DNA of 64,000 nucleotides from Bacteroidales bacterium (GTDB lineage: Bacteria > Bacteroidota > Bacteroidia > Bacteroidales > UBA10428), in NCBI GenBank assembly GCA_016935355.1, contig JAFGRC010000172.1, positions 7,091 through 71,090 of the forward strand. Direction: 5' to 3'. The translations under genes and the position numbers were made by a program. Shown here piece by piece: positions 24,981-43,241 of this stretch. Every line of letters begins with the position of its first letter. Positions within the stretch are counted from its first letter, which is position 1. The notes beneath the pieces were generated by a model that searched no databases, was not told the origin of the DNA, and saw only the letters and a list, made by a program, of their open reading frames with translations.

Positions 24981-26768
24981 TCAGCTTTCGTTTTCCCCGG
25001 ATTCAAGTAAATTTTTCATTTTCTGAACCAGCAGATCAACCTGAAATGGTTTGCTGATATAATCATTCATTCCGGCTGCCAGACAGGTTTCCTTGTCTCC
25101 CGAAAGCGCATTTGCAGTTATGGCAATAATGGGTGTCAGCGTATTGGAAGATGATTCCAGTTCCCGTATTTTTTTTGTCGCGACAATACCATTAATGACA
25201 GGCATCTGAATGTCCATAAGGATCAGATCGTACTTGGCCGATCCGAATTTATCAAGGGCGTCCTTCCCGTTATGGGCAACATCAATGTTCTTTACCAGAT
25301 TTTTTAAGCTTAAAATAATGATTTTCTGATTGATAGCATTATCTTCGACCAGTAAAATGTTCGAATCTTTCAGTTCAACTTTGTGTTTGACCTGAAGCAG
25401 TCTGGTCACTTCCCTGTCCGGTTCAGTTCTTTTATACCCTGTAAAATGTGTATCTTTTTTCAAAGTTAACCTGAATGTCATGGAAGTGAAGTTGTCTGAA
25501 GTCGATATATCGAGTTCACCACCATAAAATTCAATGATCTTCTTTGCAATGATAAAATCAATAAAGTAATCATCAGGATGGTAGGTCCCTTCATGAATAA
25601 GTTCAGGACCGGGTCTGGCATAATAATTGCCGTAATCGTCTGATTCCAGATGAAGCAACGGACACCTGACGATAAAAGTCAGTGCTGTTTCCTGCTCACG
25701 ATCCTCCGCGACATCAACATCTGCTTCAATGGTGATCTTATGATCGGGATTTGCTTTGATCACATTCTCAATAATGTTGAGGAATATTTGTTTCACCCTT
25801 ATGGGATCACCAATATAATTGGTCTTTATGTTTTTTGAGATGTTCAGTGCAATGTCAATACGATCTTTGTACTGATCCCGGAACAACTTGAAAATACTCT
25901 CAATGGAAGCGTATAAGTCAAAGCTGACCTGACTGCTGACTTCTTTTTCAATTTTTACCTCTGAGACTTTGACGATGTTGTTGACCACATTGATCAGATT
26001 GATTGTCGATGCCATAATGGTATCAAAAAGATCACGCAGTTCGGGATCCAGCCGGGATTTGTTTACAAGATTTGAAACGACTGTCAGGTTGTTCAGAGGT
26101 GTTCTGATCTGGTGTGATAACTTGGACAGGAAATCCTCCTTTTGCCGGATCTCATTTTTAGACTCGATGATTGACCGTGTAAGTACCTGATAGTTGTGAA
26201 GTTTCAGGTATTCATGGAAATATATCATCAGGTGAATGATGGCATAAGCTCCGCCAAGTCTTATGGAAACTGCTGCTGTATATTCCTGTGATCCTTGAAT
26301 CTGTTGGTGTAAGGAAAAAAATGCTATGATCAACACAAAGAAGATAAATGACACTACATTACCCCGGCTCAGGCCATATAATGGAATTGAAAAGACCGGA
26401 AAAAACAACACCCAGATAAATCCGGTACCGGCAGTCCCTCCCGTATATAACAGGTATAGCATCACAACAGCAGCCAGTAGCGTGAGAATGAACTTACAGG
26501 TTCTCTGATGCTTTGCAAAATGATAAAAGATCAGATTTAAAATCAAAACACCTGCCGCCCCCAGCAATACAAAGGATAAGGCATTATTCTGACCGGTTAA
26601 AGCCATGATCCCGAATATAATACATATGACGGCACAGGTGAGGTGGTAAAGATAGATGAACAGGATTTTATTGACTACTTCCAGGTCAGACTGTCGTTCA
26701 AGTTTTTTTGTCAGACGATCCAGTAACAAATAGAGCAGATTCATTCTTGTTGAATTGGCCTTTGTCAA
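24981..26768 (-). CDS. Hybrid sensor histidine kinase / response regulator with about 6 N-terminal TM helices and a degenerate HATPase-like domain
   Basis: The HisKA H-box is SHQIRTPLNNL. An N-box-like NIIENVIKAN is present, but I can see no G1 (DxGxG) or G2 (GxGLGL) boxes. The receiver domain is intact (LLVEDN, LILMDIQMP, ITA, ISKP). Confidence 0.85.
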   Translation of the reverse strand: MTKANSTRMNLLYLLLDRLTKKLERQSDLEVVNKILFIYLYHLTCAVICIIFGIMALTGQNNALSFVLLGAAGVLILNLIFYHFAKHQRTCKFILTLLAAVVMLYLLYTGGTAGTGFIWVLFFPVFSIPLYGLSRGNVVSFIFFVLIIAFFSLHQQIQGSQEYTAAVSIRLGGAYAIIHLMIYFHEYLKLHNYQVLTRSIIESKNEIRQKEDFLSKLSHQIRTPLNNLTVVSNLVNKSRLDPELRDLFDTIMASTINLINVVNNIVKVSEVKIEKEVSSQVSFDLYASIESIFKLFRDQYKDRIDIALNISKNIKTNYIGDPIRVKQIFLNIIENVIKANPDHKITIEADVDVAEDREQETALTFIVRCPLLHLESDDYGNYYARPGPELIHEGTYHPDDYFIDFIIAKKIIEFYGGELDISTSDNFTSMTFRLTLKKDTHFTGYKRTEPDREVTRLLQVKHKVELKDSNILLVEDNAINQKIIILSLKNLVKNIDVAHNGKDALDKFGSAKYDLILMDIQMPVINGIVATKKIRELESSSNTLTPIIAITANALSGDKETCLAAGMNDYISKPFQVDLLVQKMKNLLESGENES

Positions 26769-26942
26769 ATATATTTATTCACTTGCTAATATAAAAACAG
26801 TTAAAAATAATAAATATTTACAGAATTCAGTTATAAAAACAATGAACTGCCTGTTCATTGAATATCGGATTAAGGGTATGCCACTTTAAAAAATATGCAA
26901 TAAATTTGTAAAATGACCACAACCGGCGGAAGGAAGACTTTA

Positions 26943-27629
26943 ATGAAAAGCATCATTTTATCGGCAACACTTGTCTTCTGCAGCACCTTAATGGCGGCAG
27001 GGCAGGATGCATCACAGATGATCCGGTATACTCCCGATTTCAAATTCAAAGACGGACTTTTTCTCCGTTTTGAGCAGGTCCAGCAGAACAGCCCGATACC
27101 GATATCCCTGATCATCAGTCCGGTTCCCTATGACGATCAGGATTTTTATGAAAGAATTTTACAGGACAAAGTGGTACAGTATTTTGATCAGCTGGGGATT
27201 GTGCAGGAAATTCAGATAAAGGATTTGTGGGGTTATTCCCATAACGGAATGTTGCACGTTAATATAAACGATGGTTTTTACCGCATTACTGTCATAGGAA
27301 AGATATGTCATTTTGTTGCCAGTCTGACCACATACAATAATTATTATAACCCGTATTATCCTTATACTTCACCTTATTATTATCCCTATTACAATCCCTA
27401 TTCGTATTATCCCGACAGGAGAACTACTGAAATGAGGCAGTACCTGCTGGATTTCACCACAGGTAATATCATGGATTATGATGTTCCGGAAATAGAAGTT
27501 TTACTCATGGCCGATCCTGAATTGCATGATGAGTATACATCGCTCAGCAAAAGAAAAAGAAGGCAAAGCAAATTTCTGTATATCAGAAAATTCAATGACC
27601 GTAATCCACTGTATTTTCCGGCCAACTGA
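26943..27629 (+). CDS. Hypothetical secreted protein with a Tyr/Pro/Asn-rich low-complexity segment
   Basis: The ATG at 26943 gives the signal peptide MKSIILSATLVFCSTLMAAGQ. The internal low-complexity run is YNNYYNPYYPYTSPYYYPYYNPYSYYP. Confidence 0.65.
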   Translation: MKSIILSATLVFCSTLMAAGQDASQMIRYTPDFKFKDGLFLRFEQVQQNSPIPISLIISPVPYDDQDFYERILQDKVVQYFDQLGIVQEIQIKDLWGYSHNGMLHVNINDGFYRITVIGKICHFVASLTTYNNYYNPYYPYTSPYYYPYYNPYSYYPDRRTTEMRQYLLDFTTGNIMDYDVPEIEVLLMADPELHDEYTSLSKRKRRQSKFLYIRKFNDRNPLYFPAN

Positions 27630-27664: not shown

Positions 27665-28519
27665 ATGATGAATATGAAAAAAATAGTGATCACCTGGATT
27701 TTTCTGATGGCTTTTCCGGTATTGTTTGCTCAAAGCTATGTTCCATCCAGAGAGGATATTACAGCGTTTTTCAATACGACAACCCTTGTAGTTCTTGATG
27801 ATAGTCCGATCAGTGAATATAATACAATTATTTCCGGTGTGATGGAACAGGAGTGGAATGTAACTGATTTTGACTTTATTTCAAATAAAGAGTTTGAGGA
27901 AAAAAGGTTTGATCCTGCTTATTCTTTTATTTATAGCGCACAGGTTACATTTGAAAATGATAAAACTGATGCCCGGTACAGATTTCTCCATCTTACTCTG
28001 GGAGGAGACTATTTCAGACTGAACGAAATGCCTGATCTGGCTTCGGTACCATTGGCATACCATAGTGTGGATGAGGACCGGTATTCCTATAAGCTGGCAA
28101 TACTGGTAAGGTTCATTCAGAACCATGTGATGCTGATCCGTGAACATCCCGAGATCGTATCTTCCAACGTATTCAAATATTATAACAACAACATCAGGGA
28201 GATCAGGGATAAAATCCTTTATCTGCTTGAAGAGGAAATTGCTCCGGAGATCAGGAATACCTCAGGCATTCAGAAGGTCTATCCGTATAATTTTCAGATG
28301 GTTACAATGGAGGATATTGAAGAGGCAATTAAGCGCAGGGATCCGGATGTGGTTTTTCTGCATAAAGTGGGACCGGAAGGCACCAAACTTAATGCACGTT
28401 CTTATAAAATAATCATCGGAGCTGCAAATGCCAATTTTTATTATTTTGATTATCATATGATCAGCAATAAAAATCCGGATGGATTTCTGGAATCTGATTT
28501 TAAGAAATTGGCAAGGTGA
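27665..28519 (+). CDS. Hypothetical secreted protein (about 281-284 aa)
   Basis: The signal peptide is MKKIVITWIFLMAFPVLFAQ, with in-frame ATGs at 27665, 27668 and 27674. I recognise no family. Confidence 0.65.
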   Translation: MMNMKKIVITWIFLMAFPVLFAQSYVPSREDITAFFNTTTLVVLDDSPISEYNTIISGVMEQEWNVTDFDFISNKEFEEKRFDPAYSFIYSAQVTFENDKTDARYRFLHLTLGGDYFRLNEMPDLASVPLAYHSVDEDRYSYKLAILVRFIQNHVMLIREHPEIVSSNVFKYYNNNIREIRDKILYLLEEEIAPEIRNTSGIQKVYPYNFQMVTMEDIEEAIKRRDPDVVFLHKVGPEGTKLNARSYKIIIGAANANFYYFDYHMISNKNPDGFLESDFKKLAR

Positions 28520-28685: not shown

Positions 28686-29441
28686 ATGATCCGCATCAAA
28701 TCGGGTATTGTTCTTACATACTTGTTCTTATTTCTTGGAAGTGATCTGATTGCACAGGATCCTTCAAGGGCAAATGATCTGCTTTCTGAAGCGGATGTGC
28801 ATATCGGCAACAATCAACTTGGACAGGCCCTTGAAAAGACCAGGGAAGCATTACGGGTCGATCCGTCAAGTATGGCTGCAATTCAGAAGCAGATCAATAT
28901 TTATTATCTGATGAATGATAACAAGGAAGCTTTAAGGCTGGCTGATGCTGCCATAAAGAAATACCCCGGCGATCCGGAATTGTTATACCTCAGGGGGATT
29001 ATCAACAACAGCCGGGGACGTTATGCCAGGGCCCTTGAAGACTTTGATCAGGCACTGACTTTGCAGGATGAAGCTGGCGCTTATAAAATTTATCTGGGAC
29101 GGGGAATTGCTCATATGAGTCTTGTGGAATATGAACAGGCCATGTCGGATTTCTCCAGGTCAATTGAATTAAACGATAACATAGCGGGTGCTTATCACAG
29201 CCGTGCCCTCCTGAACTATGAACTCCAGGATTATCATGCCGCAATAGAAGACTTTCTGAAAACCCTGGAACGTAATGTGGAAAATGATGTGTTGTATTTC
29301 AACCTGGGTATGTCATATTACAGACTTTCTGATCGGACAAATGCATGTCCGTATTTTCACAAAGCCTGTACAATGGGGAACAACAATGCATGCAGGATGG
29401 TGCTGATGGAATGTGCCAAAGCACTACCGTATATCCCTTAA
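28686..29441 (+). CDS. Tetratricopeptide-repeat protein with a Cys-rich C-terminus
   Basis: It has a signal-peptide-like N-terminus and several TPR-type A..Y/F...A helix pairs. The C-terminus reads ACPYFHKACTMGNNNACRMVLMEC. Confidence 0.75.
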   Translation: MIRIKSGIVLTYLFLFLGSDLIAQDPSRANDLLSEADVHIGNNQLGQALEKTREALRVDPSSMAAIQKQINIYYLMNDNKEALRLADAAIKKYPGDPELLYLRGIINNSRGRYARALEDFDQALTLQDEAGAYKIYLGRGIAHMSLVEYEQAMSDFSRSIELNDNIAGAYHSRALLNYELQDYHAAIEDFLKTLERNVENDVLYFNLGMSYYRLSDRTNACPYFHKACTMGNNNACRMVLMECAKALPYIP

Positions 29442-29520: not shown

Positions 29521-31548
29521 ATGGAATTGTCGGTTATTATAGTAAGCTACAACGTAAAGCATTTCCTTGAACAATGTCTGAATGCCGTTATTCGTTCGGC
29601 CGATACCATCAGGACAGAAATTATAGTTGTTGACAACAATTCGGTTGACGGTTCCGTTCAGATGGTACGGGAAAAATTTCCACAGGTCTTCCTCATTGCA
29701 AACCATTCCAATAACGGATTCGCAAAGGCCAATAACCAGGGCATTGTCATTTCCCGAGGTAAATATGTACTCCTGGTCAATCCCGATACCGTTGTTCAGG
29801 AAGACACCTTTCTAAAATGCATCGAATTTATGGAATCACATCCTGAGGCCGGATCTCTGGGTGTAAAAATGATTGACGGGAAAGGGAGGTTCCTGCCGGA
29901 GTCCAAACGGGCATTCCCCGCGCCGGAAGTGGCATTTTACAAAATATTCGGATTTTCTGCGCTTTTCCCCAGATCAAGGAAGTTTGGCAGGTATTCGCTG
30001 GGATATCTTGACCGGGAAAGTGTTCATGAAGTGGATGTGATCTCCGGAGCCTTTATGTTCATACGCCGGACAGCACTCGATAAATCGGGATTGCTGGATG
30101 AGGATTTTTTTATGTACGGGGAAGATATTGATCTCTCATACCGGATCAAGGAAAGCGGATATTTGAACTATTATTATCCGGAAACCGCCATTATTCACTA
30201 TAAAGGTGAAAGCACAAAAAAAAGCAGCATTAATTATGTGGTGATGTTTTATCAGGCGATGATTATTTTTGCCCGCAAACACTTTTCGAAAAATGCTGCC
30301 CGTTATTATGCTGCGTTGATTCAGACAGCAATCTATTTCAGGGCTGTTGTTTCCATTACCGTACGTTTTTTCACCGGCATCATTAATCCTTTGCTCAATG
30401 CACTCATAGTTTATGCCTGCTATTGTTTGTTCCTTCCGGTCTGGGCAAAACACCTTTTTGGGATCAACGGCAGCTATCCGCGGGAGTATCTTTATTACAT
30501 TGTACCTGCATACATTCTGGTATGGACACTCTCAATCTATTTCTCAGGCGGATATGAAAAACTGGTCAGGCCGGTAAACCTTCTTAAGGGAGTACTGACG
30601 GGTACCATAATTATACTGATCGTGTATGCATTGTTGCCCGAACATTTGAGATTTTCCAGGGCTTTAATTCTGATCGGGACGGTCTGGATGTTCATCACGG
30701 CACTGATCATTCGTCTTTTACTCAGTCAAACGGGCAGCAGTAATTTTAAACTTGAATTGCGCAAAAGAAAAAAGCGCATGATAATCGTTGGCAGCATGGC
30801 TGCCTGCAAGCGTGTATTGGAGATTCTGAACCAGAACGGAATAAAATGTGAATTTGCCGGATGCGTTCATCATATCACCGGGGAGCATGTTCCTGACGGG
30901 TATATCGGACATATCGGACAGATTGAAGAAATCGCCGGCATAAACAGGATTGAGGAAATCATTTTTTGTTCCCGCGATTTGACATCAAAAAACATCATAA
31001 AAACAATGTTGTTGTGCACCGGCACGGATGTCGAATTTAAAATTGCCCAGCCTGAAAGTCTTTCCATCATCGGAAGCAGTTCAGTCAATACCACGGGAGA
31101 CCTTTATGTGGTTCATTCCAACACACTGTCAAGAAGGCTTAACAGGAGAAAGAAGCGGCTGCTCGATATTGCCGTCGCATTGATCCTTGTGCTGATCAGT
31201 CCGGTCATGATGTTTATTGTGAAAAATCCCCGCGGTTATCTGCGGAATATCGGTTTGAACTTTTTAGGATTCACCTCATGGGTAAGCTATTGTCAGTTCT
31301 CAGAAAATCATCCCGGTTTACCCGGTCTGAAAACGGGCGTCCTCACTCCCGCTGACGGCCTGAATGTGGTGTCCATGTCGCCTGAAGCATTGGAAAACCT
31401 GAACTTGCTTTATGCTAAGGATTACAGCATTTCAAATGACATTAGCATCATATTGCGTTCCTGCAGGTATCTGGGAAGAAAACCCGGTTCCAATCCGGCA
31501 AAGAACAGGTCAGGCATGAATAATTCGAACAACAAATCAAAAAGCTGA
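29521..31548 (+). CDS. Family 2 glycosyltransferase fused to a WbaP-like membrane scaffold with a shortened Bac_transf-like C-terminus
   Basis: The first ~250 aa are GT2 (SVIIVSYNV; VVDNNSVDGS; NPD; GEDIDL). About five TM helices follow, then a Rossmann-like MIIVGSMAACKRVLEIL block. The C-terminal segment KRLLDIAVALILVLISPVMMF...PGLKTGVL...LYAKDYSISNDISIILRS resembles the two ends of a polyprenyl-phosphate sugar transferase domain. Confidence 0.8.
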   Translation: MELSVIIVSYNVKHFLEQCLNAVIRSADTIRTEIIVVDNNSVDGSVQMVREKFPQVFLIANHSNNGFAKANNQGIVISRGKYVLLVNPDTVVQEDTFLKCIEFMESHPEAGSLGVKMIDGKGRFLPESKRAFPAPEVAFYKIFGFSALFPRSRKFGRYSLGYLDRESVHEVDVISGAFMFIRRTALDKSGLLDEDFFMYGEDIDLSYRIKESGYLNYYYPETAIIHYKGESTKKSSINYVVMFYQAMIIFARKHFSKNAARYYAALIQTAIYFRAVVSITVRFFTGIINPLLNALIVYACYCLFLPVWAKHLFGINGSYPREYLYYIVPAYILVWTLSIYFSGGYEKLVRPVNLLKGVLTGTIIILIVYALLPEHLRFSRALILIGTVWMFITALIIRLLLSQTGSSNFKLELRKRKKRMIIVGSMAACKRVLEILNQNGIKCEFAGCVHHITGEHVPDGYIGHIGQIEEIAGINRIEEIIFCSRDLTSKNIIKTMLLCTGTDVEFKIAQPESLSIIGSSSVNTTGDLYVVHSNTLSRRLNRRKKRLLDIAVALILVLISPVMMFIVKNPRGYLRNIGLNFLGFTSWVSYCQFSENHPGLPGLKTGVLTPADGLNVVSMSPEALENLNLLYAKDYSISNDISIILRSCRYLGRKPGSNPAKNRSGMNNSNNKSKS

Positions 31549-31659: not shown

Positions 31660-34600
31660 ATGAAAATACCATCCCGTATCCGATATTCATTATGTATGCT
31701 GATCTTTTCTTCTCTGTTCAGTGTAAATGCCTTTGCCCAGGATGAGGGCAATTTCAAGGAATTGTTCCTCGAAGCTGAGTCTTTTTTCCTCTTTGAGGAG
31801 TTTAAAGATGCACTGCCCTTATATCAAAAGCTTTTACAGCTGGATCCTGAGAATTTCAACATCAATTATAAAATAGGCATATGTTACCTGAATGATCCCT
31901 ATCAGGTCAGCAAATCAATAACATATCTGGAAAATGCGATTAAGGGGACAAGTCCGGGTTACCGGATCAATAACCACAGGGAACGGATGGCACCGCAGGA
32001 GGCATATTATTATCTGGGGAATGCATACCGCGTCAACAACATGCTGGATGATGCCATTGAAATGTATGAGTTTTTCAAAGGGGTAATGGATCCCGTGGTA
32101 TATGATTCTGAACTGGTTGAGGCACAAATTGATGCCTGTGAAGTAGCAAGATCCCTGCAAGCGAGTCCGATTTATTTTACATCGTCAAATTTGGGCGGAA
32201 CGATCAATGAACGGTTTGAAGAAATCAATCCCGTCATTTCAGGTGATGAATCTGTCCTGGTATTTACACGCAAACTGCAGTTTTACGATGCCGTTTTTTA
32301 CAGCAGGAAAGAAAACGGGACATGGAGCTATCCGGTCAATCTCACCGCTTCTTTCGGTGTTGACGGAAATACTAATGTAACGGGAATATCTTATGATGGT
32401 GACGAACTTTTCGTATACCGAAGTGACGATTTTGACGGCAATATATATGTAAGCAGACGTAAAAACGATCAATGGTCACGGCTGGAAAAGCTAAACGATA
32501 ACATTAATACGAAATACTGGGAATCGCATGCTTCCATCTCGGATGATGGTAAAACACTTTACTTTACCAGCAACAGGAAAGGCGGTTACGGAGGACTTGA
32601 CATCTATAAATCGGAACGCAGGGAAGGAGGAAACTGGGGTCCGGCCATTAACCTGGGACCCGTGATCAATACCAAATACAACGAAGACACGCCTTTTGTT
32701 ACCGATGGAGGCTCGACAATTTATTTCAGCTCCATGGGACATTATAATATGGGTGGATATGATATTTTTTACAGTACCAGGCTTGATAACGGACGGTGGT
32801 CGGTTCCCGTCAATGTCGGATATCCGCTCAATTCAACGAACGATGACCGTTTTTTTGTTCCGACCCGTGATGGAGCGTATGCCTACTTTTCAAAATATAA
32901 TGCGGAAGATTCATATGGCCTTGCCGATTTATACAGGATGGAGGTATTTACCGATCTGCATCCAAGAAAATTCATTCTGAACGGTATTGCGCGAATCGAA
33001 GGTAACATCAGTGCAGATCTGACCCGGCATGCGGTGAAACTGGTCAATGCCCGGACAAAAGAAATTGTCGATCAGGATACCATGAATGCTGACGGGACCT
33101 ATACGCTGGATGCTGTATCCGGTGATTTTGAACTGCAGATCAGCCAAAAAGATGTCATTCTCGCCTCTGAAAGAATCTCGATTCCTGCAGACAATCCGTC
33201 AAATGTCATAACACATGCATCGACTTTCAGTCCTGCATCCCGGACTGAAGCTATAGCTGCCGGACCTGCGGAAAGTTTTAAACAGACCGATCTGCCGGTG
33301 ATTAACACCAGGATCAGATCTTACGATGTTACAACGGACCAGTCGATACCCATCGAACTGGAACTCGAAACTGATACGGAATTGGATGTCGAAACACGGG
33401 TAAACGGACAATTATTTAAAACTGAAAATTTTGAAATTGACCAGAGAAGTTTTATTTACATGCTGAAACCCTTTCAGGGTGAGAATACACTCCGGTTTAC
33501 CATCACCAATCGGGAAGGTGTCAGCAATACACTTGAAGTAACCGTGAATTACTTGCCTGAGATTGAAGAACTGGCTGCTGTTAAACCGCTGGAACAAAGT
33601 GTCAGGTCGGACACCAACCGATATGCGGTACTTGGTTCACTTGCAGGTGGAAATCTGGCCGCGTATTTACAGGGAACGGACCTTCAGGAATTGCAGTTCA
33701 GCACCATCGGTGAGTTGTATGAATACCTGGTTACCCAGAGCGATGAGAATAATTTCACGACAGAAGATGTGGATGCGCTGGTAACACGATACCTGGTCCA
33801 GAAGAACCTGGGTTTCTTTGTTGATGAGCTGAAGGACCAGTCTTCTGACAGCATTGTCAGGGCTGTTGACAGGATTTTCATCCAGTCAGCCGATCAATAT
33901 ACACCTGAAACATTGCTGGATCATCTTTTTGGAATTGCTGAACAGGGTAATTATTCTTCAGATGAACTGCAGGATGCCCTTTACAGGATCGCGGCAACCG
34001 ACCGCAATGAACTTTCAGTAATGGATCTTTTGCAATCATATTCCGTAGAAGGCCTCGCCGGTTATCTGGATGACATGAAACAAAACGTTTCCGGATTCCC
34101 TGATGTTGCTTCAATTGCAGACCATATCATGAAAGGCCTGGAGGAAAACTGGTTCAGTCAATCTGAATTTGAAACGGCGCTGAAAAGATCGGCATATGAA
34201 ATAGATGTTAACTTTTTACAGATGAGTCTTTTAAATATATCTGTCGATTCATTGCACCGTACTGTTGCCGGACTTAAACTCTGGGATCAGAACATACGCA
34301 ATGCAACCGAACTGGTCACTTATTTGCTGACGCATTCAGAATCCAATGGCTATACACGAAAAGATGTTCTTGATGATATTGAACAGATAAGGAGCAATCC
34401 TTACTATCTTGTAGAAATGTTCCGTAATACACTGGCAGAAGAAGCTACCGGCAGCCTGAAGATCTTTTTACAGGAAATCGACATAAGAGGACTGAATATT
34501 GACACCTATGGAAAGCTCATCAACTATCTTCTCAGGCAGTCAGAATATCAGGAATTCAACAGGGAAATGATCTACCAGCTTTTAATTGATATTATTGATA

Positions 34601-34965
34601 TCAGTGATGCCGGTGAGTTTGTTGATCTGTTGCTGCAATTCGCAGATGAACGCATTACCTCCGCAATATACGCAACAGATCCCGGACTGTATTCAAGACC
34701 GCTTGAGGTTGTCCAGTATCTTCTTGCTGCTTCCGATGAATATGCATATACGGAGCAGGATCTCCTGAATCTTTTGCTGAAGATATTCTTTGAAAGGAAA
34801 CCCCTGATCCGTGAAATTCCTCAGGAGAAAGGATGGTTTTTCGGAGCGGAAAGGCCTGCATTGATCAAGGCTCTGATTATAGCGAATACGGTCATTATAT
34901 TGCTGATCATCGTATTGATCTTTCTCAGGAGGCAAAAAAGAGATGCACAAAATTCCACTGAATGA
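31660..34965 (+). CDS. PorE-like paralog 1: signal peptide, TPR, PD40 beta-propeller, CRD-like and Ig-like domains, helical repeat array, C-terminal TM anchor
   Basis: Shared family motifs are YKIGICYLN, YYLGNAYRVNNMLDDAI, QFYDAVFYS, GKTLYFTSNRKGGYGGLDIY and TIYFSSMGHYNMGGYDIF. The CRD-like segment is LNGIARIEG...DGTYTLDAVSGDFELQIS. The C-terminal hydrophobic helix is ALIIANTVIILLIIVLIFL followed by RRQKR. There is no OmpA domain. Confidence 0.85.
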   Translation: MKIPSRIRYSLCMLIFSSLFSVNAFAQDEGNFKELFLEAESFFLFEEFKDALPLYQKLLQLDPENFNINYKIGICYLNDPYQVSKSITYLENAIKGTSPGYRINNHRERMAPQEAYYYLGNAYRVNNMLDDAIEMYEFFKGVMDPVVYDSELVEAQIDACEVARSLQASPIYFTSSNLGGTINERFEEINPVISGDESVLVFTRKLQFYDAVFYSRKENGTWSYPVNLTASFGVDGNTNVTGISYDGDELFVYRSDDFDGNIYVSRRKNDQWSRLEKLNDNINTKYWESHASISDDGKTLYFTSNRKGGYGGLDIYKSERREGGNWGPAINLGPVINTKYNEDTPFVTDGGSTIYFSSMGHYNMGGYDIFYSTRLDNGRWSVPVNVGYPLNSTNDDRFFVPTRDGAYAYFSKYNAEDSYGLADLYRMEVFTDLHPRKFILNGIARIEGNISADLTRHAVKLVNARTKEIVDQDTMNADGTYTLDAVSGDFELQISQKDVILASERISIPADNPSNVITHASTFSPASRTEAIAAGPAESFKQTDLPVINTRIRSYDVTTDQSIPIELELETDTELDVETRVNGQLFKTENFEIDQRSFIYMLKPFQGENTLRFTITNREGVSNTLEVTVNYLPEIEELAAVKPLEQSVRSDTNRYAVLGSLAGGNLAAYLQGTDLQELQFSTIGELYEYLVTQSDENNFTTEDVDALVTRYLVQKNLGFFVDELKDQSSDSIVRAVDRIFIQSADQYTPETLLDHLFGIAEQGNYSSDELQDALYRIAATDRNELSVMDLLQSYSVEGLAGYLDDMKQNVSGFPDVASIADHIMKGLEENWFSQSEFETALKRSAYEIDVNFLQMSLLNISVDSLHRTVAGLKLWDQNIRNATELVTYLLTHSESNGYTRKDVLDDIEQIRSNPYYLVEMFRNTLAEEATGSLKIFLQEIDIRGLNIDTYGKLINYLLRQSEYQEFNREMIYQLLIDIIDISDAGEFVDLLLQFADERITSAIYATDPGLYSRPLEVVQYLLAASDEYAYTEQDLLNLLLKIFFERKPLIREIPQEKGWFFGAERPALIKALIIANTVIILLIIVLIFLRRQKRDAQNSTE
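33631..34795 (+). repeat. Protein-level tandem repeats: about six degenerate helical modules of roughly 60-70 aa inside paralog 1
   Basis: The recurring core is [polar]-x-x-E/x-L-h-x-Y-L-h-x-x-S-[DE]-x-x-x-[YF]-[TS]-x-x-[DE]-h. Examples are IGELYEYLVTQSDENNFTTEDVDAL, PETLLDHLFGIAEQGNYSSDELQDAL, ATELVTYLLTHSESNGYTRKDVLDDI, YGKLINYLLRQSEYQEFNREMIYQL and PLEVVQYLLAASDEYAYTEQDLLNLL. Confidence 0.6.
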
Positions 34966-35002
34966 CTGAATGATTAGAAGGCTGCTGTTAAAGTAAAAAT
35001 AA

Positions 35003-37021
35003 ATGAGGCCAGTTCATCCGTTATACCGGTGCATACGAGTAATATGTCTTGTTTCGTTGTTTTCCTTCTTTTATCCCGCAGCAGGTCAGGTAATTGTGCC
35101 TCGACCTGAAGATATCTATGAGGAAGCTGAACAATATGTGTTTGCAGGAGATTATCAGGAAGCTTTGGCTTCATACATGAGCCTTTACGAAAAAGGTTAT
35201 ACCACAGCAAACATCAGCTACAAAATCGGGACCTGCTATCTCAATCTGTCCGGATTAAGAACAAAGGCAATACATTTTCTGCATGACGCTTCCCGGCATG
35301 CATCACGGGTATATTCAGGAGGAGCGTTATATGAAGCCCGGGCACCCGTCAAGTCATTTCTATATCTGGGTATTGCACACCGCATCAACTACGATTTTGA
35401 CCTCGCTGAAAAAGCTTTTCTGACTTATGTTGATTCCCTTGACGAAACAGACGTGACAGGCAGGGCACTGGCTCAATATCACCTGGAACGATGTGAAAAT
35501 GCAAGGGAACTGATCGCATCACCCGCCACCCTGAAAGCAGATACCCTGCCGGGTGTAATAAATAACCGGTTGTCAAATTTTAATCCGCTGGTCACGGATG
35601 ATGAGAAAATACTTTTTTTTAATGAACAACTAAAATTTTATGATGCGGTGATGGTATCCCATAAGGAAGATTATGCATGGTCGGTTCCGGAAAACATCAC
35701 CCCAAAGATCAGATCCGACGGGGATCATTACCTGACGGGAATATCACAGAACGGGGACAGGTTATTGCTTTCAGCACATGATCCTTATATGAGCGGAACG
35801 ATCTATGAGGCTGAGAATATAAACGGCCGGTGGAGACCGCTTAAGGTTTTGAATGATAACATCAATACCCGTTTCAACGAGACACATGCATCTTTTTCAA
35901 AAGATGGGAATACGCTGTATTTTACCAGTGACCGTCCGGGAGGATACGGGGGACTTGATCTCTACAAATCGGAACGGAATGGTACAGGCAACTGGGGTCC
36001 TGCACAGAATCTGGGTCCTCTTGTGAACACACCCTATAATGAAGAAACACCTTTTGTTACCGGAGATCCTGTCATACTTTTTTTCAGTTCACAGGGACAT
36101 TATAACATGGGAGGATATGATATATTCTTTTCCCGCAGGTTTGATGACGGAGCCTGGCAACATCCGGTGAACATCGGCTATCCGGTCAATACTCCCGATG
36201 ATGACCTGTTCTATTATCCCCTGCCTTCAGGCGAGGCGGCTTACAAACCGGTATTACACAACATCCGTGCGGACCCCGATATTGTCCGGTATCAGATTTT
36301 GGAACCCGGTAAGCCTGCCCGGTATACCATCAACGGAAACATTGAAATTGAGGATCAGAACGGGGCCGGTTATTCGGATATCCTGGTTTCCGTGTTCACC
36401 AGACCGGAAAACGATACCATCGGCCGGCACCATCCGGATGATAACGGAACATTCAGTCAGAAAGTCCCCGGTGGATCATTCACACTGGAGATCACCCAAG
36501 GAGGTTATCCGGTTTATTCCAGGGAACTGGAAATACCTTCTTATTTCCCCCATAAGGAACTTGTGCTCAATGCATCCGTCTCTTTACCGTTCCGATCTGC
36601 ACTTGACACATTGATCCTGAGAAACATCAGGTTTGATTTTGATCAAAGTGATATCAGGGATAAAGCCCGGACCTTTCTTGATGGTCTGGCCATGATGTTG
36701 AACAAATATCCCGAAATAACGGTCACTTTGAACGGATATACAGATGCTGTCGGATCCGAGTCCTACAATGTGAAATTATCACTGGAAAGGGCGAGTAATG
36801 CAAGAGATTTTCTAAGCGGACGTAATATCGTTCAAAACCGACTGATGATTAACGGCTTCGGAGAAAATTATCCGGTGGCTTTGAATACAACTCCTGACGG
36901 AAGTGATGTACCTGAAGGCCGGGCATACAACAGGCGGGTGGAAATCGTTCTGGAGAATATTCCGGAGAACCTTACAATTATTAAAGGGAATGATATTCCT
37001 GAAAACCTGCTGATAAAATGA
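35003..37021 (+). CDS. PorE-like paralog 2: signal peptide, TPR, PD40 beta-propeller, CRD-like domain, OmpA_C-like peptidoglycan-binding domain
   Basis: Shared motifs are YKIGTCYLN, KFYDAVMVS, GNTLYFTSDRPGGYGGLDLY and FFSSQGHYNMGGYDIF. The CRD-like segment is YTINGNIEIEDQNG...GSFTLEITQGGY. The OmpA_C motifs are NGYTDAVGSESYNVKLSLERA and GRAYNRRVEIVL. Confidence 0.88.
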   Translation: MRPVHPLYRCIRVICLVSLFSFFYPAAGQVIVPRPEDIYEEAEQYVFAGDYQEALASYMSLYEKGYTTANISYKIGTCYLNLSGLRTKAIHFLHDASRHASRVYSGGALYEARAPVKSFLYLGIAHRINYDFDLAEKAFLTYVDSLDETDVTGRALAQYHLERCENARELIASPATLKADTLPGVINNRLSNFNPLVTDDEKILFFNEQLKFYDAVMVSHKEDYAWSVPENITPKIRSDGDHYLTGISQNGDRLLLSAHDPYMSGTIYEAENINGRWRPLKVLNDNINTRFNETHASFSKDGNTLYFTSDRPGGYGGLDLYKSERNGTGNWGPAQNLGPLVNTPYNEETPFVTGDPVILFFSSQGHYNMGGYDIFFSRRFDDGAWQHPVNIGYPVNTPDDDLFYYPLPSGEAAYKPVLHNIRADPDIVRYQILEPGKPARYTINGNIEIEDQNGAGYSDILVSVFTRPENDTIGRHHPDDNGTFSQKVPGGSFTLEITQGGYPVYSRELEIPSYFPHKELVLNASVSLPFRSALDTLILRNIRFDFDQSDIRDKARTFLDGLAMMLNKYPEITVTLNGYTDAVGSESYNVKLSLERASNARDFLSGRNIVQNRLMINGFGENYPVALNTTPDGSDVPEGRAYNRRVEIVLENIPENLTIIKGNDIPENLLIK

Positions 37022-37129
37022 CCCTGGTCAGTAAAGGATTTTATGTCCGGTTGGTATTGGTTTAATTTAGAATTATTATTGCACTCCCTGCGGATAATTT
37101 ATTAAATTTGTTATAAAATCCCTTCTTAT

Positions 37130-39094
37130 ATGAAAAAAGCACTGGTCTTTGGCTCATTCATAATTTTGTTTTCATTTGTGCATGCGCAGGAAATTGAAAG
37201 ATCTGTATTAAAAGAATACTTTCTGGATGCGGAATTTTTCTTCGCGCAGGAAGCATATGCTGATGCCTTGTACGAATACCTGGAATTATACAATAATGGT
37301 TACCGGGATGTTGCCAACATCAACTACAGGATCGGTATCTGTTACCTGAACATTCCGGGACAAAAGGACAGTTCCATTCCGCATTTGCTTGAAGCCGTAA
37401 AGGATGTATCTTCCAGGTACCGGGAAAGTTCTTTCAGACAGGAAAGTGCACCGGCAGATGCATGGTTGTTCCTGGGCAATGCATACAGGGTCAATAACAT
37501 GCTTGATGAGGCCATTTCCGCATATTCTGCATTCAAAGCACTAACAAAATCGACTGATGAGATACAATTTGCAGATCAGCAGATCACAGCCTGCAATAAT
37601 GCATTACAGTATATGAACCGGCCTCTGGATATCCGGATCACGAATCTGGGCGATTCGATCAACGGGACTTCATCAAATTTCAAGGCTGTTGTTTCGGGTG
37701 ATGGCAGAACCCTGGTTTATATGAATGAACTGCCTTTTTACGATGCCGTATATTTTTCCAGATACCGGAACGGATCATGGTCGGCTCCTGTCAATATCAC
37801 ACCACAAATAGAATCGGACGGTGACCAGTATGTATCATCTGTCTCATATGATGGCACTGTATTATACCTTACCCGGGAGGATCCTTTTAACAGTGATATT
37901 TATACAAGCACTTTTGTGGGGGACAGATGGACAAAGTCACAGCCGATAGCCGGCCAGAACATCAATACCAAATACTGGGAATCCCATGCTTCAATTTCAG
38001 CGGATGGCAGATCCCTGTATTTCACAAGCAACCGCAGGGGAGGATCCGGGAATATGGATGTGTATATTTCAAGACTTCAGGGAGATGGCATATGGGGTGA
38101 ACCGTTGAACCTGGGATCCGGCATCAACACGGCATTGAATGAGGACACGCCCTTTATTACTGAAAATGACAGCCTGTTGTATTTCAGCTCACAGGGTCAT
38201 GAAAATATTGGCGGTTATGATATATTCAGGGTCCGACTAAACCGGGATGGAAGCTGGAGTACTCCTGAAAATATGGGTTATCCGATAAATACCACGGATG
38301 ATGATCTGTTCTATTATCCCTGGCATAATGACCGTATAGGTTATGCATCGTTATACCGTGATGATGGTTATGGCAAGGAGGATATTTTTGCATTTCAGGC
38401 TGCAGACGATAAACCGTTATATGAATTGATCGCTGAATTGTTGCCTCAGGAAACGATGCCTCCGGAACAGTCAATAGAGGAAAGTGTTGATGCGGAGACA
38501 GTTGCAGCTGATGCTGCAGTTTCAGGTACAGAAACTTCCGGCGGACAGGCTGCCGCAACCGGCATGCCTGAAAAGGAGGTTGGTGAAGCCGAAGCACCGG
38601 AGACTGAAAAAGAGCAGACAGAAGTTGCAGAGGCTGCACCATCTGAAGTTCCGGAACCTGCTGGTAAAAAGCTTTTGGAGGTTGAACTCAATCCGCTATA
38701 TTTTAGTTTTGATGATCATGAACTCACTGAAACGGGCAAAAATGAACTCCAAAAAATATACGACCTGCTTTCTGAATTTCCGGAAGTACATTTAAGGTTG
38801 ATGGGTTATACAGATGCAGTAGGACCGGCTGCATACAACCTCGGATTGTCTGAAAGGCGGGCAGTTTCTGCCATGAACCATCTCGTGGATCTTGGTATGG
38901 ATGTAAAAAGGCTGACAGCGGTGGGACTCGGGGAAACCGGTTTTGCAGCAATAAACACCAATGCTGATGGCACGGATAATCCTGAAGGCAGGAGGCTGAA
39001 CAGAAGGGTTGAATTTGATATCATGGGACTGGAAGAGCAAATGATCATCATCAGAAGACCGGCAGTACCCGAAAATCTCAGATTCAAAGAATAA
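37130..39094 (+). CDS. PorE-like paralog 3: signal peptide, TPR, PD40 beta-propeller, acidic low-complexity linker, OmpA_C-like domain
   Basis: Shared motifs are YRIGICYLN, LFLGNAYRVNNMLDEAI, PFYDAVYFS, GRSLYFTSNRRGGSGNMDVY and LYFSSQGHENIGGYDIF. The E/A/T/P-rich linker spans about 38401-38672. The OmpA_C motifs are MGYTDAVGPAAYNLGLSERRA and GRRLNRRVEF. Confidence 0.88.
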   Translation: MKKALVFGSFIILFSFVHAQEIERSVLKEYFLDAEFFFAQEAYADALYEYLELYNNGYRDVANINYRIGICYLNIPGQKDSSIPHLLEAVKDVSSRYRESSFRQESAPADAWLFLGNAYRVNNMLDEAISAYSAFKALTKSTDEIQFADQQITACNNALQYMNRPLDIRITNLGDSINGTSSNFKAVVSGDGRTLVYMNELPFYDAVYFSRYRNGSWSAPVNITPQIESDGDQYVSSVSYDGTVLYLTREDPFNSDIYTSTFVGDRWTKSQPIAGQNINTKYWESHASISADGRSLYFTSNRRGGSGNMDVYISRLQGDGIWGEPLNLGSGINTALNEDTPFITENDSLLYFSSQGHENIGGYDIFRVRLNRDGSWSTPENMGYPINTTDDDLFYYPWHNDRIGYASLYRDDGYGKEDIFAFQAADDKPLYELIAELLPQETMPPEQSIEESVDAETVAADAAVSGTETSGGQAAATGMPEKEVGEAEAPETEKEQTEVAEAAPSEVPEPAGKKLLEVELNPLYFSFDDHELTETGKNELQKIYDLLSEFPEVHLRLMGYTDAVGPAAYNLGLSERRAVSAMNHLVDLGMDVKRLTAVGLGETGFAAINTNADGTDNPEGRRLNRRVEFDIMGLEEQMIIIRRPAVPENLRFKE

Positions 39095-39098
39095 ACCG

Positions 39099-40433
39099 AT
39101 GTATTGTTTCATCCGGAATACCGTTTTCTTTTTTATGTTAGTCATACTGTCACCTGTGAGCATATGGTCACAGTCAGGTGATATGATTGTGGAAACATTC
39201 GATGATGCAGAGTTCTTTTATGCCCGCGGCGAATACGAAGAAGCAGCTTATTATTACCGGCAGCTGGTTACATATTCTCCGGCAAACGCAAATTATCATT
39301 TCAAACTCGGGGAATGTTACCTGAATATTCCCGGAAGTGAGATACTGGCCGTTCCGCATCTGGAGAAAGCCAAAGACAACATCATCGAGAAAAAAAAATA
39401 CAGGGCAAAGGATTTTACCGAAGACCGGGCCCCGCTGCATGCTTTTTTTTACCTGGGGAATGCTTACCGGATCAACAATCAGTTATCTGAGGCACTTGAA
39501 GCTTATAACACCTTTGTAAGCTCACCTTTTTATTACGGGAATTATAATGTGGCAATTGTTGAAAATGAGATCAAATCCTGTGAACGTGCCAAGATCATTC
39601 AGGATCATCCGATACAAATGACCGGGATTCTCCTCGACAGCACGATCAATACTTCTGCATCTGAGTTAAACCCCGTTATATCATCCGATGAACAGGAAAT
39701 ATTTTTTGTCAGGCGCCTGAAGTTCTATGATGCGGTTTATACCAGTGTCAGAAAGGAAGGAACATGGACTGATCCGGTGAACCTGAATCCCTTCATAGGT
39801 TCTGACGGAGATTTTTACCCGGCATGCATCTCACCGGATAAGAGGGCGTTGTACCTTATAAAAAAAGATGTAACGAACAGTGATATTTATGTAAGCTACA
39901 GGGTGGATTCAGTTTGGACCGGAGTGCAAAAGCTGAATAAAAAAATAAATTCAAAGGCGAACGAAACTTCGGCATGGATTTCAGAGGACGGGGAAACACT
40001 TTTTTTCTCAAGTTCCAGAAGAAGGGGTGTGGGGGGTAAAGACATCTATTATGCCATAAGGAAGAAAAACGGCGAATGGGGCAGGGTCAGAAATATCGGC
40101 AAGACGATCAATACGCCCTTTGATGAGGAAGGTCCCTGTCTTACAAACCAGGGTAATACATTATATTTCAGTTCAAAAGGCCATTATAATATGGGTGGAT
40201 TTGATATTTTTTTTTCAAACCGGAACGGTGACGCATGGGGAGAACCTGTCAATGCCGGCTATCCATTGAACGATACCGGGGATAATACCGGATATACCGC
40301 ACTGATGGGTGGCATGACCGGTTATTATTCAAAGATGAACATGACCGGAACTTCCGGCGAGGACATTTACCGGGTTGTGATCCGGACCAACCTGCCCCGT
40401 ATTATGGAAACCATTGAAAGCATGCAGCAATGA
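39099..40433 (+). CDS. PorE-like paralog 4: signal peptide, TPR, PD40 beta-propeller only (no CRD, no OmpA)
   Basis: It starts 4 nt after the stop of paralog 3. Shared motifs are FKLGECYLN, FYLGNAYRINNQLSEAL, KFYDAVYTS, GETLFFSSSRRRGVGGKDIY and LYFSSKGHYNMGGFDIF. Confidence 0.85.
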   Translation: MYCFIRNTVFFFMLVILSPVSIWSQSGDMIVETFDDAEFFYARGEYEEAAYYYRQLVTYSPANANYHFKLGECYLNIPGSEILAVPHLEKAKDNIIEKKKYRAKDFTEDRAPLHAFFYLGNAYRINNQLSEALEAYNTFVSSPFYYGNYNVAIVENEIKSCERAKIIQDHPIQMTGILLDSTINTSASELNPVISSDEQEIFFVRRLKFYDAVYTSVRKEGTWTDPVNLNPFIGSDGDFYPACISPDKRALYLIKKDVTNSDIYVSYRVDSVWTGVQKLNKKINSKANETSAWISEDGETLFFSSSRRRGVGGKDIYYAIRKKNGEWGRVRNIGKTINTPFDEEGPCLTNQGNTLYFSSKGHYNMGGFDIFFSNRNGDAWGEPVNAGYPLNDTGDNTGYTALMGGMTGYYSKMNMTGTSGEDIYRVVIRTNLPRIMETIESMQQ

Positions 40434-40458: not shown

Positions 40459-41046
40459 ATGACAGATAAGCTGGAAAACAATCCGGAATTTGAAATTACA
40501 TTACGGGCACTGGAACCTGCTGATATCGATGTGATCTACAAATGGGAAAACGATCCGGATATCGGGCGCATCAGCAATACTTATACGCCCTATTCAAAAT
40601 ACATCCTTGAAAAATACATAGAAAATTCCCACCTTGATATCTTTCAGGTTAAACAAATGCGGTTGATGATCGATGTCCGTGACAGGAAGGAAGACCTTGT
40701 ACGCTCGATTGGAACAATTGACCTTTTTGATTTTGACCCCTATCACAACCGTGCCGGGGTGGGAATCCTTATTGGTGAAAAATCCGACCGCAAAAGGGGA
40801 TATGCCACAATGGCTTTAAAAAAGTTCATTCATTATGGTTTTAACATCCTCCAACTTCATCAGTTATACTGCAATATTGTCCCGGAAAACCTGGACAGTA
40901 TGAAATTATTTAAAAATCAGGGTTTCCGGATCTGCGGCAAAAAGAAAGACTGGATCCGAACACCCGGCCGTTATGTTGAAGAATACACGCTGCAATTGAT
41001 CAATCCCAATGATTCAGGCGGAGATACCAAAATGACCGGTCGCTGA
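40459..41046 (+). CDS. GNAT family N-acetyltransferase (RimJ/SpeG-like)
   Basis: It is 195 aa with acetyl-CoA binding-type motifs (RNRAGVGILIGEKSDRKRGYAT.AL). It starts 25 nt after paralog 4. Confidence 0.8.
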   Translation: MTDKLENNPEFEITLRALEPADIDVIYKWENDPDIGRISNTYTPYSKYILEKYIENSHLDIFQVKQMRLMIDVRDRKEDLVRSIGTIDLFDFDPYHNRAGVGILIGEKSDRKRGYATMALKKFIHYGFNILQLHQLYCNIVPENLDSMKLFKNQGFRICGKKKDWIRTPGRYVEEYTLQLINPNDSGGDTKMTGR

Positions 41047-41605: not shown

Positions 41606-42607
41606 ATGATTGCATTCAATAAACTAATCGGGGAACTCAGGGAAGGTAAATACAAAACCGTTTATTTTCTGATGGGTGAAGAACCTTATTTTATCGATGT
41701 GATATCAGATTATATTGCTGATCATATCCTGAGTGAGGAAGAGAAGCCTTTTAACCTGCAGATCTTTTATGGGCGGGATGTTACAATGGATACCGTCATT
41801 GCAACTGCGCGGCGTTTTCCGGTCATGTCCCGGAATCAGGTGATTGTTGTGAAAGAGGCGCAGCAAATGATAACACTTGAGGGTCTTGAGCATTACCTGA
41901 ACAGTCCTGCCATGTCAACAATTCTTGTTTTCTGCTATAAGCATAAAAAGCTTGACAAAAGGAACAAACTTACCAGACTGATTTCGGAAAAATGTGTTTT
42001 GTTTGAATCAGACCGGTTGCAGGAGGAAAAAATACCTGTATGGACAAGCTCATATCTTGAAACAAAGGGATATCAGATAGAACCAAAAGCGGCCTGGCTG
42101 CTGGTCGACTTTGTGGGGAGTGATCTGGGCAGGATTACCAATGAACTGGATAAACTCATTTTGCTTTTACCGGATGATCAAAAACTCGTGACTTCCGATC
42201 TGATCGAGCAAAACATTGGGATCAGCAAGGATTATAATAATTTTGAACTTGCTAAAGCACTAACATCCAAAGATATACTTAAAGCAAACAGGATCATTGG
42301 TTATTTTACGAAAAATTCTGCCAGCAATCCGGCAACGCTTACCTTATCCTATCTTTTTTATTTCTTCAGCAAGGTCCTGTTATACCATGGAATTGTTGAT
42401 AAAAGCAGGGATCATCTGGCAAAGGAAATGGGTGTCCATCCCTATTTCATAGCTGAATACCGGCAGGCATCAAAAATATTTTCATTGACGAAAACCCGCG
42501 AAATCATAGCACTGTTGCGGGAATATGATGTAAAATCAAAGGGAGCGGGTAGTATGGCTCCCGATGGCGAATTGCTGAGGGAACTTGTATATAGAATCAT
42601 ACATTAA
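41606..42607 (+). CDS. holA: DNA polymerase III subunit delta
   Basis: It is 333 aa. The N-terminal pattern YFL.GEEPYFID and overall delta-like helical C-terminal domains fit, and it is divergent from the HsdR_N gene. Confidence 0.8.
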   Translation: MIAFNKLIGELREGKYKTVYFLMGEEPYFIDVISDYIADHILSEEEKPFNLQIFYGRDVTMDTVIATARRFPVMSRNQVIVVKEAQQMITLEGLEHYLNSPAMSTILVFCYKHKKLDKRNKLTRLISEKCVLFESDRLQEEKIPVWTSSYLETKGYQIEPKAAWLLVDFVGSDLGRITNELDKLILLLPDDQKLVTSDLIEQNIGISKDYNNFELAKALTSKDILKANRIIGYFTKNSASNPATLTLSYLFYFFSKVLLYHGIVDKSRDHLAKEMGVHPYFIAEYRQASKIFSLTKTREIIALLREYDVKSKGAGSMAPDGELLRELVYRIIH

Positions 42608-42617
42608 CCATTGCACC

Positions 42618-43241
42618 ATGACCTATATTATTATTGCTTTCACCGCACTGGTCTCGATTCAGGCATTTAACCGGAGTGAATGGTTTTCAAAACTGCAGTT
42701 CAATGCATATCAGGTGTATCACAGGAATGAGCTATACAGACTGCTCACACATGGATTTCTGCATGCAAACTGGACGCACCTCATTGTGAACATGCTGGTG
42801 TTGTTTTTTTTCGGCCCCTACGCTGAAAAACAACTCAGGGCAATTCTGCCTGAAAATATTCAGCAATGGTATCATCTGATATTCCTGTTCTTTTATTTGG
42901 CTGCAATTGTTGTCGCCTCCCTGATAACACTTTTCAAGCAAAAGGATAATGCATGGTACAATGCCGTGGGAGCATCCGGTGCTGTATCTGCCATAATCTT
43001 CTTTTTCATCTTTTTCAATCCCTGGGAATTGATCTATTTTTACGGAATATTGCCTGTTCCGGGAATCATTATGGGTGCTTTATACCTGGTCTATTCACAC
43101 ATAATGAGCAAAAGGGGCAGGGATAACACCAACCATGATGCGCATTTTGTCGGTGCTGTTTTTGGTTTTATCTTCCCGCTTTTCATCAATGTAAGGCTCA
43201 TTCTTTTGTTTCTGGACAGGTTGTTGAGTTTTTCATTCTGA
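42618..43241 (+). CDS. Rhomboid family intramembrane serine protease
   Basis: The ATG at 42618 gives MTYIIIAF. The motifs HGFLHANWTHL..NM, GASGAVSAI (catalytic GxSG) and HDAHFVGAVFG are present. Confidence 0.85.
   Translation: MTYIIIAFTALVSIQAFNRSEWFSKLQFNAYQVYHRNELYRLLTHGFLHANWTHLIVNMLVLFFFGPYAEKQLRAILPENIQQWYHLIFLFFYLAAIVVASLITLFKQKDNAWYNAVGASGAVSAIIFFFIFFNPWELIYFYGILPVPGIIMGALYLVYSHIMSKRGRDNTNHDAHFVGAVFGFIFPLFINVRLILLFLDRLLSFSF

Follow-up and report, generated by a model that had tools for sequence, protein, structure and literature searches.

The PorE/CHU_0125 superfamily is large and specific to Bacteroidota, and PorE and CHU_0125 are its only studied members. PorE (PG1058) of Porphyromonas gingivalis is an outer-membrane lipoprotein that combines tetratricopeptide repeats (TPR), a propeller, a CRD and an OmpA_C domain; it is encoded by a single gene in the queD-queE-porE operon (PMC5053529) and works with PorP in the T9SS (type IX secretion system). 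Two residues of its OmpA_C domain, D576 and N584, are essential for binding peptidoglycan, and its WD40 domain probably takes part in the binding of PorP, a protein of the outer membrane (PMC12773672). CHU_0125 of Cytophaga hutchinsonii, annotated as a lipoprotein and investigated as a lone gene, contains TPR, PD40 and OmpA_C, and its deletion impairs outer-membrane integrity (PMC5891637). Further members have been noted: in 2016, 2–13 homologs of PG1058 per species, some of them with extensions (PMC5053529), and in 2025, several mostly non-lipoprotein PorE homologs in gliding bacteria (PMC12773672). In Flavobacterium johnsoniae, five operons (for example, Fjoh_3950–3952) pair such a homolog, a proposed wall anchor of outer-membrane complexes, with a cargo gene bearing a CTD (C-terminal domain) of type B and an SprF-like gene (PMC12618676). 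Here we analyse four tandem members of this superfamily, P1 to P4, in a 64,000-nucleotide stretch of DNA from a Bacteroidales bacterium (contig JAFGRC010000172.1; hereafter the window). The four-gene array is a conserved locus of many Bacteroidales genomes, and its products are predicted to present one TPR–propeller core in three ways: anchored in the inner membrane, fixed to the cell wall, and unattached.

Four paralogs with a common core

P1–P4 are encoded by four open reading frames (ORFs) on the + strand, at exactly the coordinates of the initial annotation (31660–40433; Table 1), and are separated by gaps of 37, 108 and 4 bp. All four share a core of about 400 aa, made up of TPR and a PD40 propeller, in which they are 37–47% identical. 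Pairwise BLASTP gave E values of 1e-81 to 1e-118 (34–42% identity over 390–680 aligned residues) and a MAFFT alignment contains about 100 invariant columns in the first roughly 430 residues, so that the similarity is far above chance. PD40 scored above the Pfam threshold in P1, P2, P3 and P4, and TPR families of Pfam matched P1, P3 and P4. Of the five sequence motifs that had been listed as common to the set, three occur in all four proteins, whereas the second TPR motif, [FY]LGNAYR[VI]NN.., is missing from P2 (where the sequence reads YLGIAHRINYDFDLAE) and an exact match to the first PD40 motif is confined to P1 and P2, with DVY in P3 and RRRGVGG in P4.

All four proteins carry a signal-peptidase-I type site followed by Gln (AFA/Q in P1, then AAG/Q, VHA/Q and IWS/Q), the first residue of the predicted mature protein, which fits the Bacteroidetes 'Q-rule' for exported proteins. 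In agreement with the initial annotation, none of P1, P2, P3 and P4 has a lipobox Cys.

Beyond the propeller the four diverge, as had been noticed from the sequence (Table 1). OmpA exceeded the Pfam gathering threshold (27.2 bits) in P2 (61.7) and P3 (56.8) only, and the domain has no counterpart in P1 or P4. An AlphaFold2 model of P2 built with 62 orthologs (predicted local distance difference test (pLDDT) 89.8; predicted template-modelling score 0.73) consists of TPR helices, a propeller, a β-sandwich and OmpA_C. In Foldseek searches of the Protein Data Bank (PDB), its propeller matched TolB over about 260 columns (E about 1e-8) and its last domain matched Pal, OprF and the PorE C-terminal domain. 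The domain order of P2 is thus that of PorE, as proposed. For the CRD, no Pfam match was obtained at E < 0.01 in P1 or P2; the modelled β-sandwich, the alignment of P1 with P2 in this region and CarboxypepD_reg matches precomputed for some P2 orthologs support calling it CRD-like.

The peptidoglycan-binding motif D-x7-N-x2-LS-x2-R is kept in P2 and P3, and D576 and N584 of PorE (6TOP sequence) align to D581 and N589 of P2 and to D562 and N570 of P3. P2 has hundreds of full-length orthologs at about 50% identity, and a protein identical to it is recorded as 'OmpA family protein' of a Bacteroidales metagenome-assembled genome. P4, which is core only, is predicted to be a soluble periplasmic protein. 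The three modes of attachment that the initial annotation described as membrane-tethered, peptidoglycan-bound and free versions of one scaffold are thus real at the level of protein architecture.

Table 1. The array, the domains of its products and neighbouring genes, with positions in the window
Feature	Position	Strand	Residues	Remarks
P1	31660..34965	+	1101 aa	
P1 signal peptide			1–26	AFA/Q site
P1 TPR and PD40 propeller core			~30–435	
P1 CRD-like region			~436–530	
P1 Ig-like domain			~554–631	
P1 stalk	33622..34794	+	655–1045	six tandem ~66-aa four-helix repeats
P1 C-terminal transmembrane helix	34855..34926	+	1066–1089	PALIKALIIANTVIILLIIVLIFL; predicted basic cytoplasmic tail follows
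P2	35003..37021	+	672 aa	
P2 TPR			35–172	after signal peptide
P2 propeller			176–434	
P2 CRD-like β-sandwich			441–527	
P2 OmpA_C			535–661	D581/N589/R596
P3	37130..39094	+	654 aa	
P3 TPR and propeller core				after signal peptide
P3 acidic linker			429–516	Glu/Ala/Pro-rich; 19 Glu, 15 Ala, 9 Pro; net charge −17
P3 OmpA_C			~520–640	D562/N570/R577
P4	39099..40433	+	444 aa	signal peptide, TPR and propeller core, nothing more
GT2 fusion	29521..31548	+	675 aa	111 bp 5′ of P1
GNAT N-acetyltransferase	40459..41046	+		Acetyltransf_3, RimJ/RimL-like; 25 bp 3′ of P4
Rhomboid-family membrane protease	42585–43241			2.2 kb downstream of the array

P1 and its helical stalk

In the AlphaFold2 model of P1 residues 530–1101 (pLDDT 80), an Ig-like sandwich is followed by a disordered linker, an all-α region of about 390 residues, a second linker and the transmembrane (TM) helix. 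No Pfam family covers the helical region, and a Foldseek search of the PDB returned nothing at E ≤ 0.001, with weak Ig/FN3 matches only. Whereas BLAST self-comparison did not find repeats in the helical region, profile self-alignment with hhalign resolved six of about 66 residues each (offsets 66, 133, 199 and 267; probability 95–98%). A hidden Markov model (HMM) of the repeat matched 49 of the 58 C-terminally anchored family members in our sample (described below) and none of 92 OmpA members or 54 core-only members. Across this sample the repeat therefore goes exclusively with the membrane anchor, and its copy number ranges from 0 to 10, in correlation with protein length (r = 0.91). We regard the repeat as a candidate new domain family, whose variable number makes the P1 stalk a candidate periplasmic 'ruler'.

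Because P1 combines an N-terminal signal peptide with a C-terminal TM helix and a basic tail (RRQKRDAQNSTE), it is predicted to be anchored in the inner membrane with its bulk in the periplasm. Among the 58 anchored homologs, the C-terminal TM helix is likewise followed by a basic tail (median of 6 Lys/Arg in the last 15 aa). A G-W motif before the helix, together with an Asn within it, was considered and rejected as a sorting signal; these residues are invariant in close P1 orthologs and are not general among anchored members, the G-W motif being confined to the window's clade.

One P1 ortholog, on a contig of the European Nucleotide Archive (ENA) with the same synteny (L081:8360–11665), is called as two ORFs about 230 bp apart, of 470 aa (TPR–PD40) and 554 aa (Ig, repeats and TM). 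The split could come from a frameshift or a fault in the assembly, or head and stalk may really be encoded separately.

Relation to PorE and CHU_0125

The PorE (NF052230) and CHU_0125 (NF053607) models are the best NCBIfam matches of all four proteins, with no preference for PorE. The core matched both near full length (E 4e-36 to 4e-64; about 400–600 residues), and P1–P4 thus belong to the PorE/CHU_0125 superfamily, of which 2,875 representative clusters match the core at E ≤ 1e-30. Against the PorE model, P1, P2, P3 and P4 scored 124.6, 198.6, 193.3 and 130.1 bits (E 4e-36 to 1.5e-58), compared with an NCBIfam cut-off of 600 bits; against the CHU_0125 model they scored 149.5, 195.2, 217.3 and 130.5 bits, compared with a cut-off of 620 bits. 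PDB entries of PorE cover its C-terminal domain only, and our comparison with PorE comprised the NCBIfam cut-offs and OmpA_C, for which 87 PorE residues from the 6TOP alignment were used. A homolog search with this 87-residue piece yielded only fragments of at most 152 aa and no full-length PorE. In OmpA_C, identity to genuine PorE is 36% for P2 and 35% for P3, compared with 48–53% for single-copy relatives. Because P1–P4 score far below the cut-off, match CHU_0125 equally well and, where OmpA_C is present (P2 and P3), reach only 35–36% identity in it, none of them is, as judged from sequence, a member of the PorE family. The original 'PorE-like' label therefore stands in so far as it denotes homology, and not as an assignment closer to PorE than to CHU_0125.

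Ten further family members, including single-copy ones, were also considered as true PorE or CHU_0125 orthologs, and all fell below the cut-offs. Single-copy relatives outside arrays reached 288–395 bits against the two models, and it is these genes that constitute the PorE-proximal lineage in our sample. A lipobox is absent from 240 of the 246 members of related loci, and the six pattern matches look like chance occurrences within ordinary signal peptides. Positional orthology with P. gingivalis porE is ruled out by its operon, queD-queE-porE, and is unlikely for CHU_0125, upstream of which three small genes lie within a 2.4-kb fragment (PMC5891637) in place of the GT2 and GNAT context of the array.

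Other differences set the array apart from both studied proteins. P1–P4 have signal-peptidase-I sites, whereas PorE is a lipoprotein of the outer membrane (we count its periplasmic location as common to the array proteins), and they form a four-gene array without T9SS neighbours. The PorE domain order is found in P2 alone: the CRD is missing from P3, OmpA_C from P1 and both domains from P4. Anchored or core-only forms have not been described for PorE, nor an array, a stalk or core-only forms for CHU_0125. The F. johnsoniae operons resemble the locus in that several non-lipoprotein homologs occur per genome; there, however, each homolog stands with an SprF/PorP-like gene and a type-B CTD substrate, whereas here the paralogs stand together without SprF or cargo.

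Conservation of the array and age of its members

We examined 79 loci from species-representative genomes, 62 of which carry at least three tandem family members; architectures were counted in the 59 loci from other species that are not cut by a contig end. At least three members are present in 49 of these, an anchored member together with an OmpA member in 42, and all three classes (anchored, OmpA-bearing and core-only) in 35. Array members lie on the same strand throughout, with a median gap of 66.5 bp and 83% of gaps below 150 bp. The synteny check that the initial annotation had called for revealed the orthologous P1-P2-P3-P4 order in 11 species-level genomes and one ENA contig. Elsewhere order and size vary among clades, for example, 450, 980 (anchored) and 830 (OmpA) residues, or 950 (anchored), 424 (core-only), 650 and 836 (OmpA), and the P2-type lineage is confined to 12 loci.

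The literature search found no description of a conserved tandem array, a membrane-anchored member, a core-only member or the helical repeat. The suggestion that such a set was undescribed holds to that extent, whereas multiple non-lipoprotein PorE homologs had been published (PMC5053529; PMC12773672; PMC12618676).

The paralogs do not look recently shuffled, as the initial wording of 'swapped' modules might imply. Of 246 proteins, 220 share their architecture class with the nearest relative found in a different genome, and 97% resemble some protein from elsewhere more closely than they do a neighbour (median identity 72% versus 45%). Four orthogroups are recovered with bootstrap values of 87–100%. 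Judged from these comparisons, all four paralog lineages are ancient, and their architectures have stayed stable. OmpA-bearing and OmpA-less forms nevertheless occur within both the P1-type and the P3-type lineage, and modules have therefore been gained or lost over long times.

One family member of 1685 aa (P0186) carries a signal peptide, three complete cores (aa 23–422, 441–834 and 851–1248) and OmpA_C in a single chain. Such a natural fusion is a Rosetta-stone hint that heads may associate physically. By eye, its C-terminal end is SPOR-like. Separately, the 836-aa OmpA member of another array type (L048:16162–18672) has a weak C-terminal SPOR match beyond an internal OmpA_C (E 0.0015; 19.3 bits, cut-off 21), a possible link to septal peptidoglycan.

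A possible envelope scaffold

We tentatively favour, with confidence that stops just short of even, the reading that the array is a conserved and probably cotranscribed cluster whose four ancient paralogs act as a periplasmic scaffold rather than as the PorE component itself. In this model, one head, the TPR packed against the TolB-like propeller, would be attached to the envelope in different ways. P1, once exported by means of its signal peptide, would stay fixed in the inner membrane through its C-terminal helix, and its stalk of CRD-like region, Ig-like domain and six helical repeats would extend the head into the periplasm. P2 and P3 would fix the same head to peptidoglycan through the conserved Asp/Asn/Arg of OmpA_C, and the head of P4 would remain free. 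Together the four could couple the inner membrane, the cell wall and, via the heads, outer-membrane proteins, which are probably the partners of the scaffold. A joint scaffold is favoured because the three attachment classes recur together, the genes are tightly spaced and a three-core fusion exists. By analogy with CHU_0125, the best or joint-best HMM match of P1–P4, and with PorE within the T9SS, its role may lie in envelope integrity or in anchoring outer-membrane proteins. A locus that presents the TPR–propeller head tethered, wall-bound and free offers a natural dissection of the role of this head, a question that concerns PorE too. On this reading the array points to roles in envelope architecture outside type IX secretion and, if P1–P4 do form a complex, to a new coupling of envelope layers for diderm bacteria without Lpp.

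A more specific version, in our view improbable though worth stating, is a motor-less trans-envelope tether of Bacteroidales, parallel to Tol–Pal and independent of the T9SS. The number of stalk repeats would set the reach of P1, two members would bind peptidoglycan and the free member would cap the assembly or compete for partners, so positioning outer-membrane proteins relative to the wall and the inner membrane. The parts invite comparison with TolA, TolB, Pal and CpoB/YbgF: a TolB-type propeller, a Pal-type OmpA_C and a CpoB-like TPR, with P1 resembling TolA as an inner-membrane anchor with a long helical spacer across the periplasm. In the array, however, the parts are joined within paralogs of a single scaffold, P1's anchor lies at the C terminus and not at the N terminus, and no member is a lipoprotein. 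Neither the window nor the conserved flanks yielded ExbB/TolQ-like or ExbD/TolR-like motor genes, and by this comparison the TolB-like propeller fold is the sole shared feature. The likeness would thus be an analogy of parts and not homology of the system.

Several points weigh against the scaffold reading. That P1–P4 form a complex, which proteins their heads bind and what the locus does physiologically are all inferred. The split between the array lineage and the PorE/CHU_0125-proximal single-copy genes has a bootstrap of only 50%. Cotranscription, which we consider probable from gaps of 4–108 bp, gained nothing from scans for sigma-70 promoters and terminators, which were at background level and uninformative. 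Housekeeping genes (recR, E2 and holA) make up most of the conserved neighbourhood, and some of the synteny may simply come from the stability of this part of the chromosome. Finally, the superfamily, taken as a whole, follows T9SS-positive species, with a score ratio of 4.2 (PMC5053529).

Because of this last association, a T9SS-linked role is a serious rival, although on balance an unlikely one. P1–P4 would then be lineage-specific functional stand-ins for PorE, tying shuttle complexes of the PorP/SprF type, or else the PorK/N ring, to the wall and the inner membrane, and the array would be part of type IX secretion or gliding. The nearly full-length homology to PorE, the retained peptidoglycan-binding residues, the probable contribution of the PorE WD40 domain to PorP binding (PMC12773672) and the enrichment of PG1058 homologs in T9SS-positive species (PMC5053529) all fit such a role, as do the F. 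johnsoniae operons (PMC12618676). The published operon context recurs in one of our loci (L077), in which a type-B CTD cargo gene is followed by a PorP/SprF gene (267 bits) and then by a family member. By contrast, no T9SS, PorP/SprF or type-B CTD cargo genes were found in the array, its conserved flanks or the 64-kb window. P1–P4 are not lipoproteins, lie far under the PorE cut-off and are equally near to CHU_0125; the PorE-proximal lineage in the sample is single-copy and outside arrays, and porE of P. gingivalis lies in an operon of another kind (PMC5053529).

Less probable still is that the paralogs are the residue of old tandem duplications, each with its own partner and role, and that their adjacency marks a stable neighbourhood and not a shared machine. 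Their age and core identity of 37–47%, the variation of composition and gene order among clades, the restriction of the P2-type lineage to 12 loci and the housekeeping character of the flanking genes would all be expected of independent proteins. Such proteins would not readily account for the co-occurrence of the three classes in 35 of 59 complete loci from divergent clades despite rearrangements, the tight spacing on one strand or the natural three-core fusion, which argue instead for the joint scaffold.

Gene neighbourhood

In 56 of the 79 loci a GNAT gene lies directly 3′ of the array, the median gap being 10 bp, and it is probably on the same transcript, as judged from its spacing. For a cytoplasmic acetyltransferase, the linkage to genes for a putative periplasmic scaffold is unexpectedly tight and deep. 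Upstream of arrays in 47 loci is the GT2 fusion gene, which joins a membrane GT2 glycosyltransferase to the N-terminal TM/CoA-binding-like, non-catalytic portion of a polyprenyl-glycosylphosphotransferase-like protein; nothing in the fusion matches the catalytic C-terminal portion of the profile. In a Flavobacteriales locus (L043), the GT2 fusion and E2 genes lie upstream of a two-member array. Further conserved neighbours are recR, holA and the genes for an E2 acyltransferase, an HSDR_N protein and a rhomboid, the last of which is found downstream in 25 loci. In the window at large, a ribosomal-protein/SecY operon lies upstream of the array and a rhamnose utilisation locus downstream, and an Rfam scan of the window returned no match.

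Rhomboid proteases cleave type-I TM proteins, and P1 is predicted to have that topology. We nevertheless think it very improbable that P1 is a tethered precursor whose periplasmic part is freed by intramembrane proteolysis, for example, by this rhomboid, making tethered and free heads interconvertible: a free head does exist in P4 and the rhomboid gene is conserved, but holA and one other gene intervene, the protein scores 38 bits against a rhombosortase cut-off of 84, and the G-W motif is clade-specific.

Three genes upstream on the same strand are conserved beside the array in the clade of the window alone (10–13 loci) and may be part of its unit. The products of two (26913–27629 and 27665–28519) have no confident Pfam or NCBIfam match, the second at least carrying a signal peptide, and the third (28686–29441) encodes a 251-aa secreted TPR protein.

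Farther upstream, on the opposite strand, a 1081-aa protein lies beside a hybrid histidine kinase/response regulator (21730–24975 and 24981–26768); its N-terminal propeller repeats partly match the PorZ model, and its C-terminal domain is a SiaA-like PP2C phosphatase. Ribosomal protein L17 (20815–21570) is, at 251 aa, about twice the usual length and partially matches a 'sunset domain variant' model (143.6 bits; cut-off 280).

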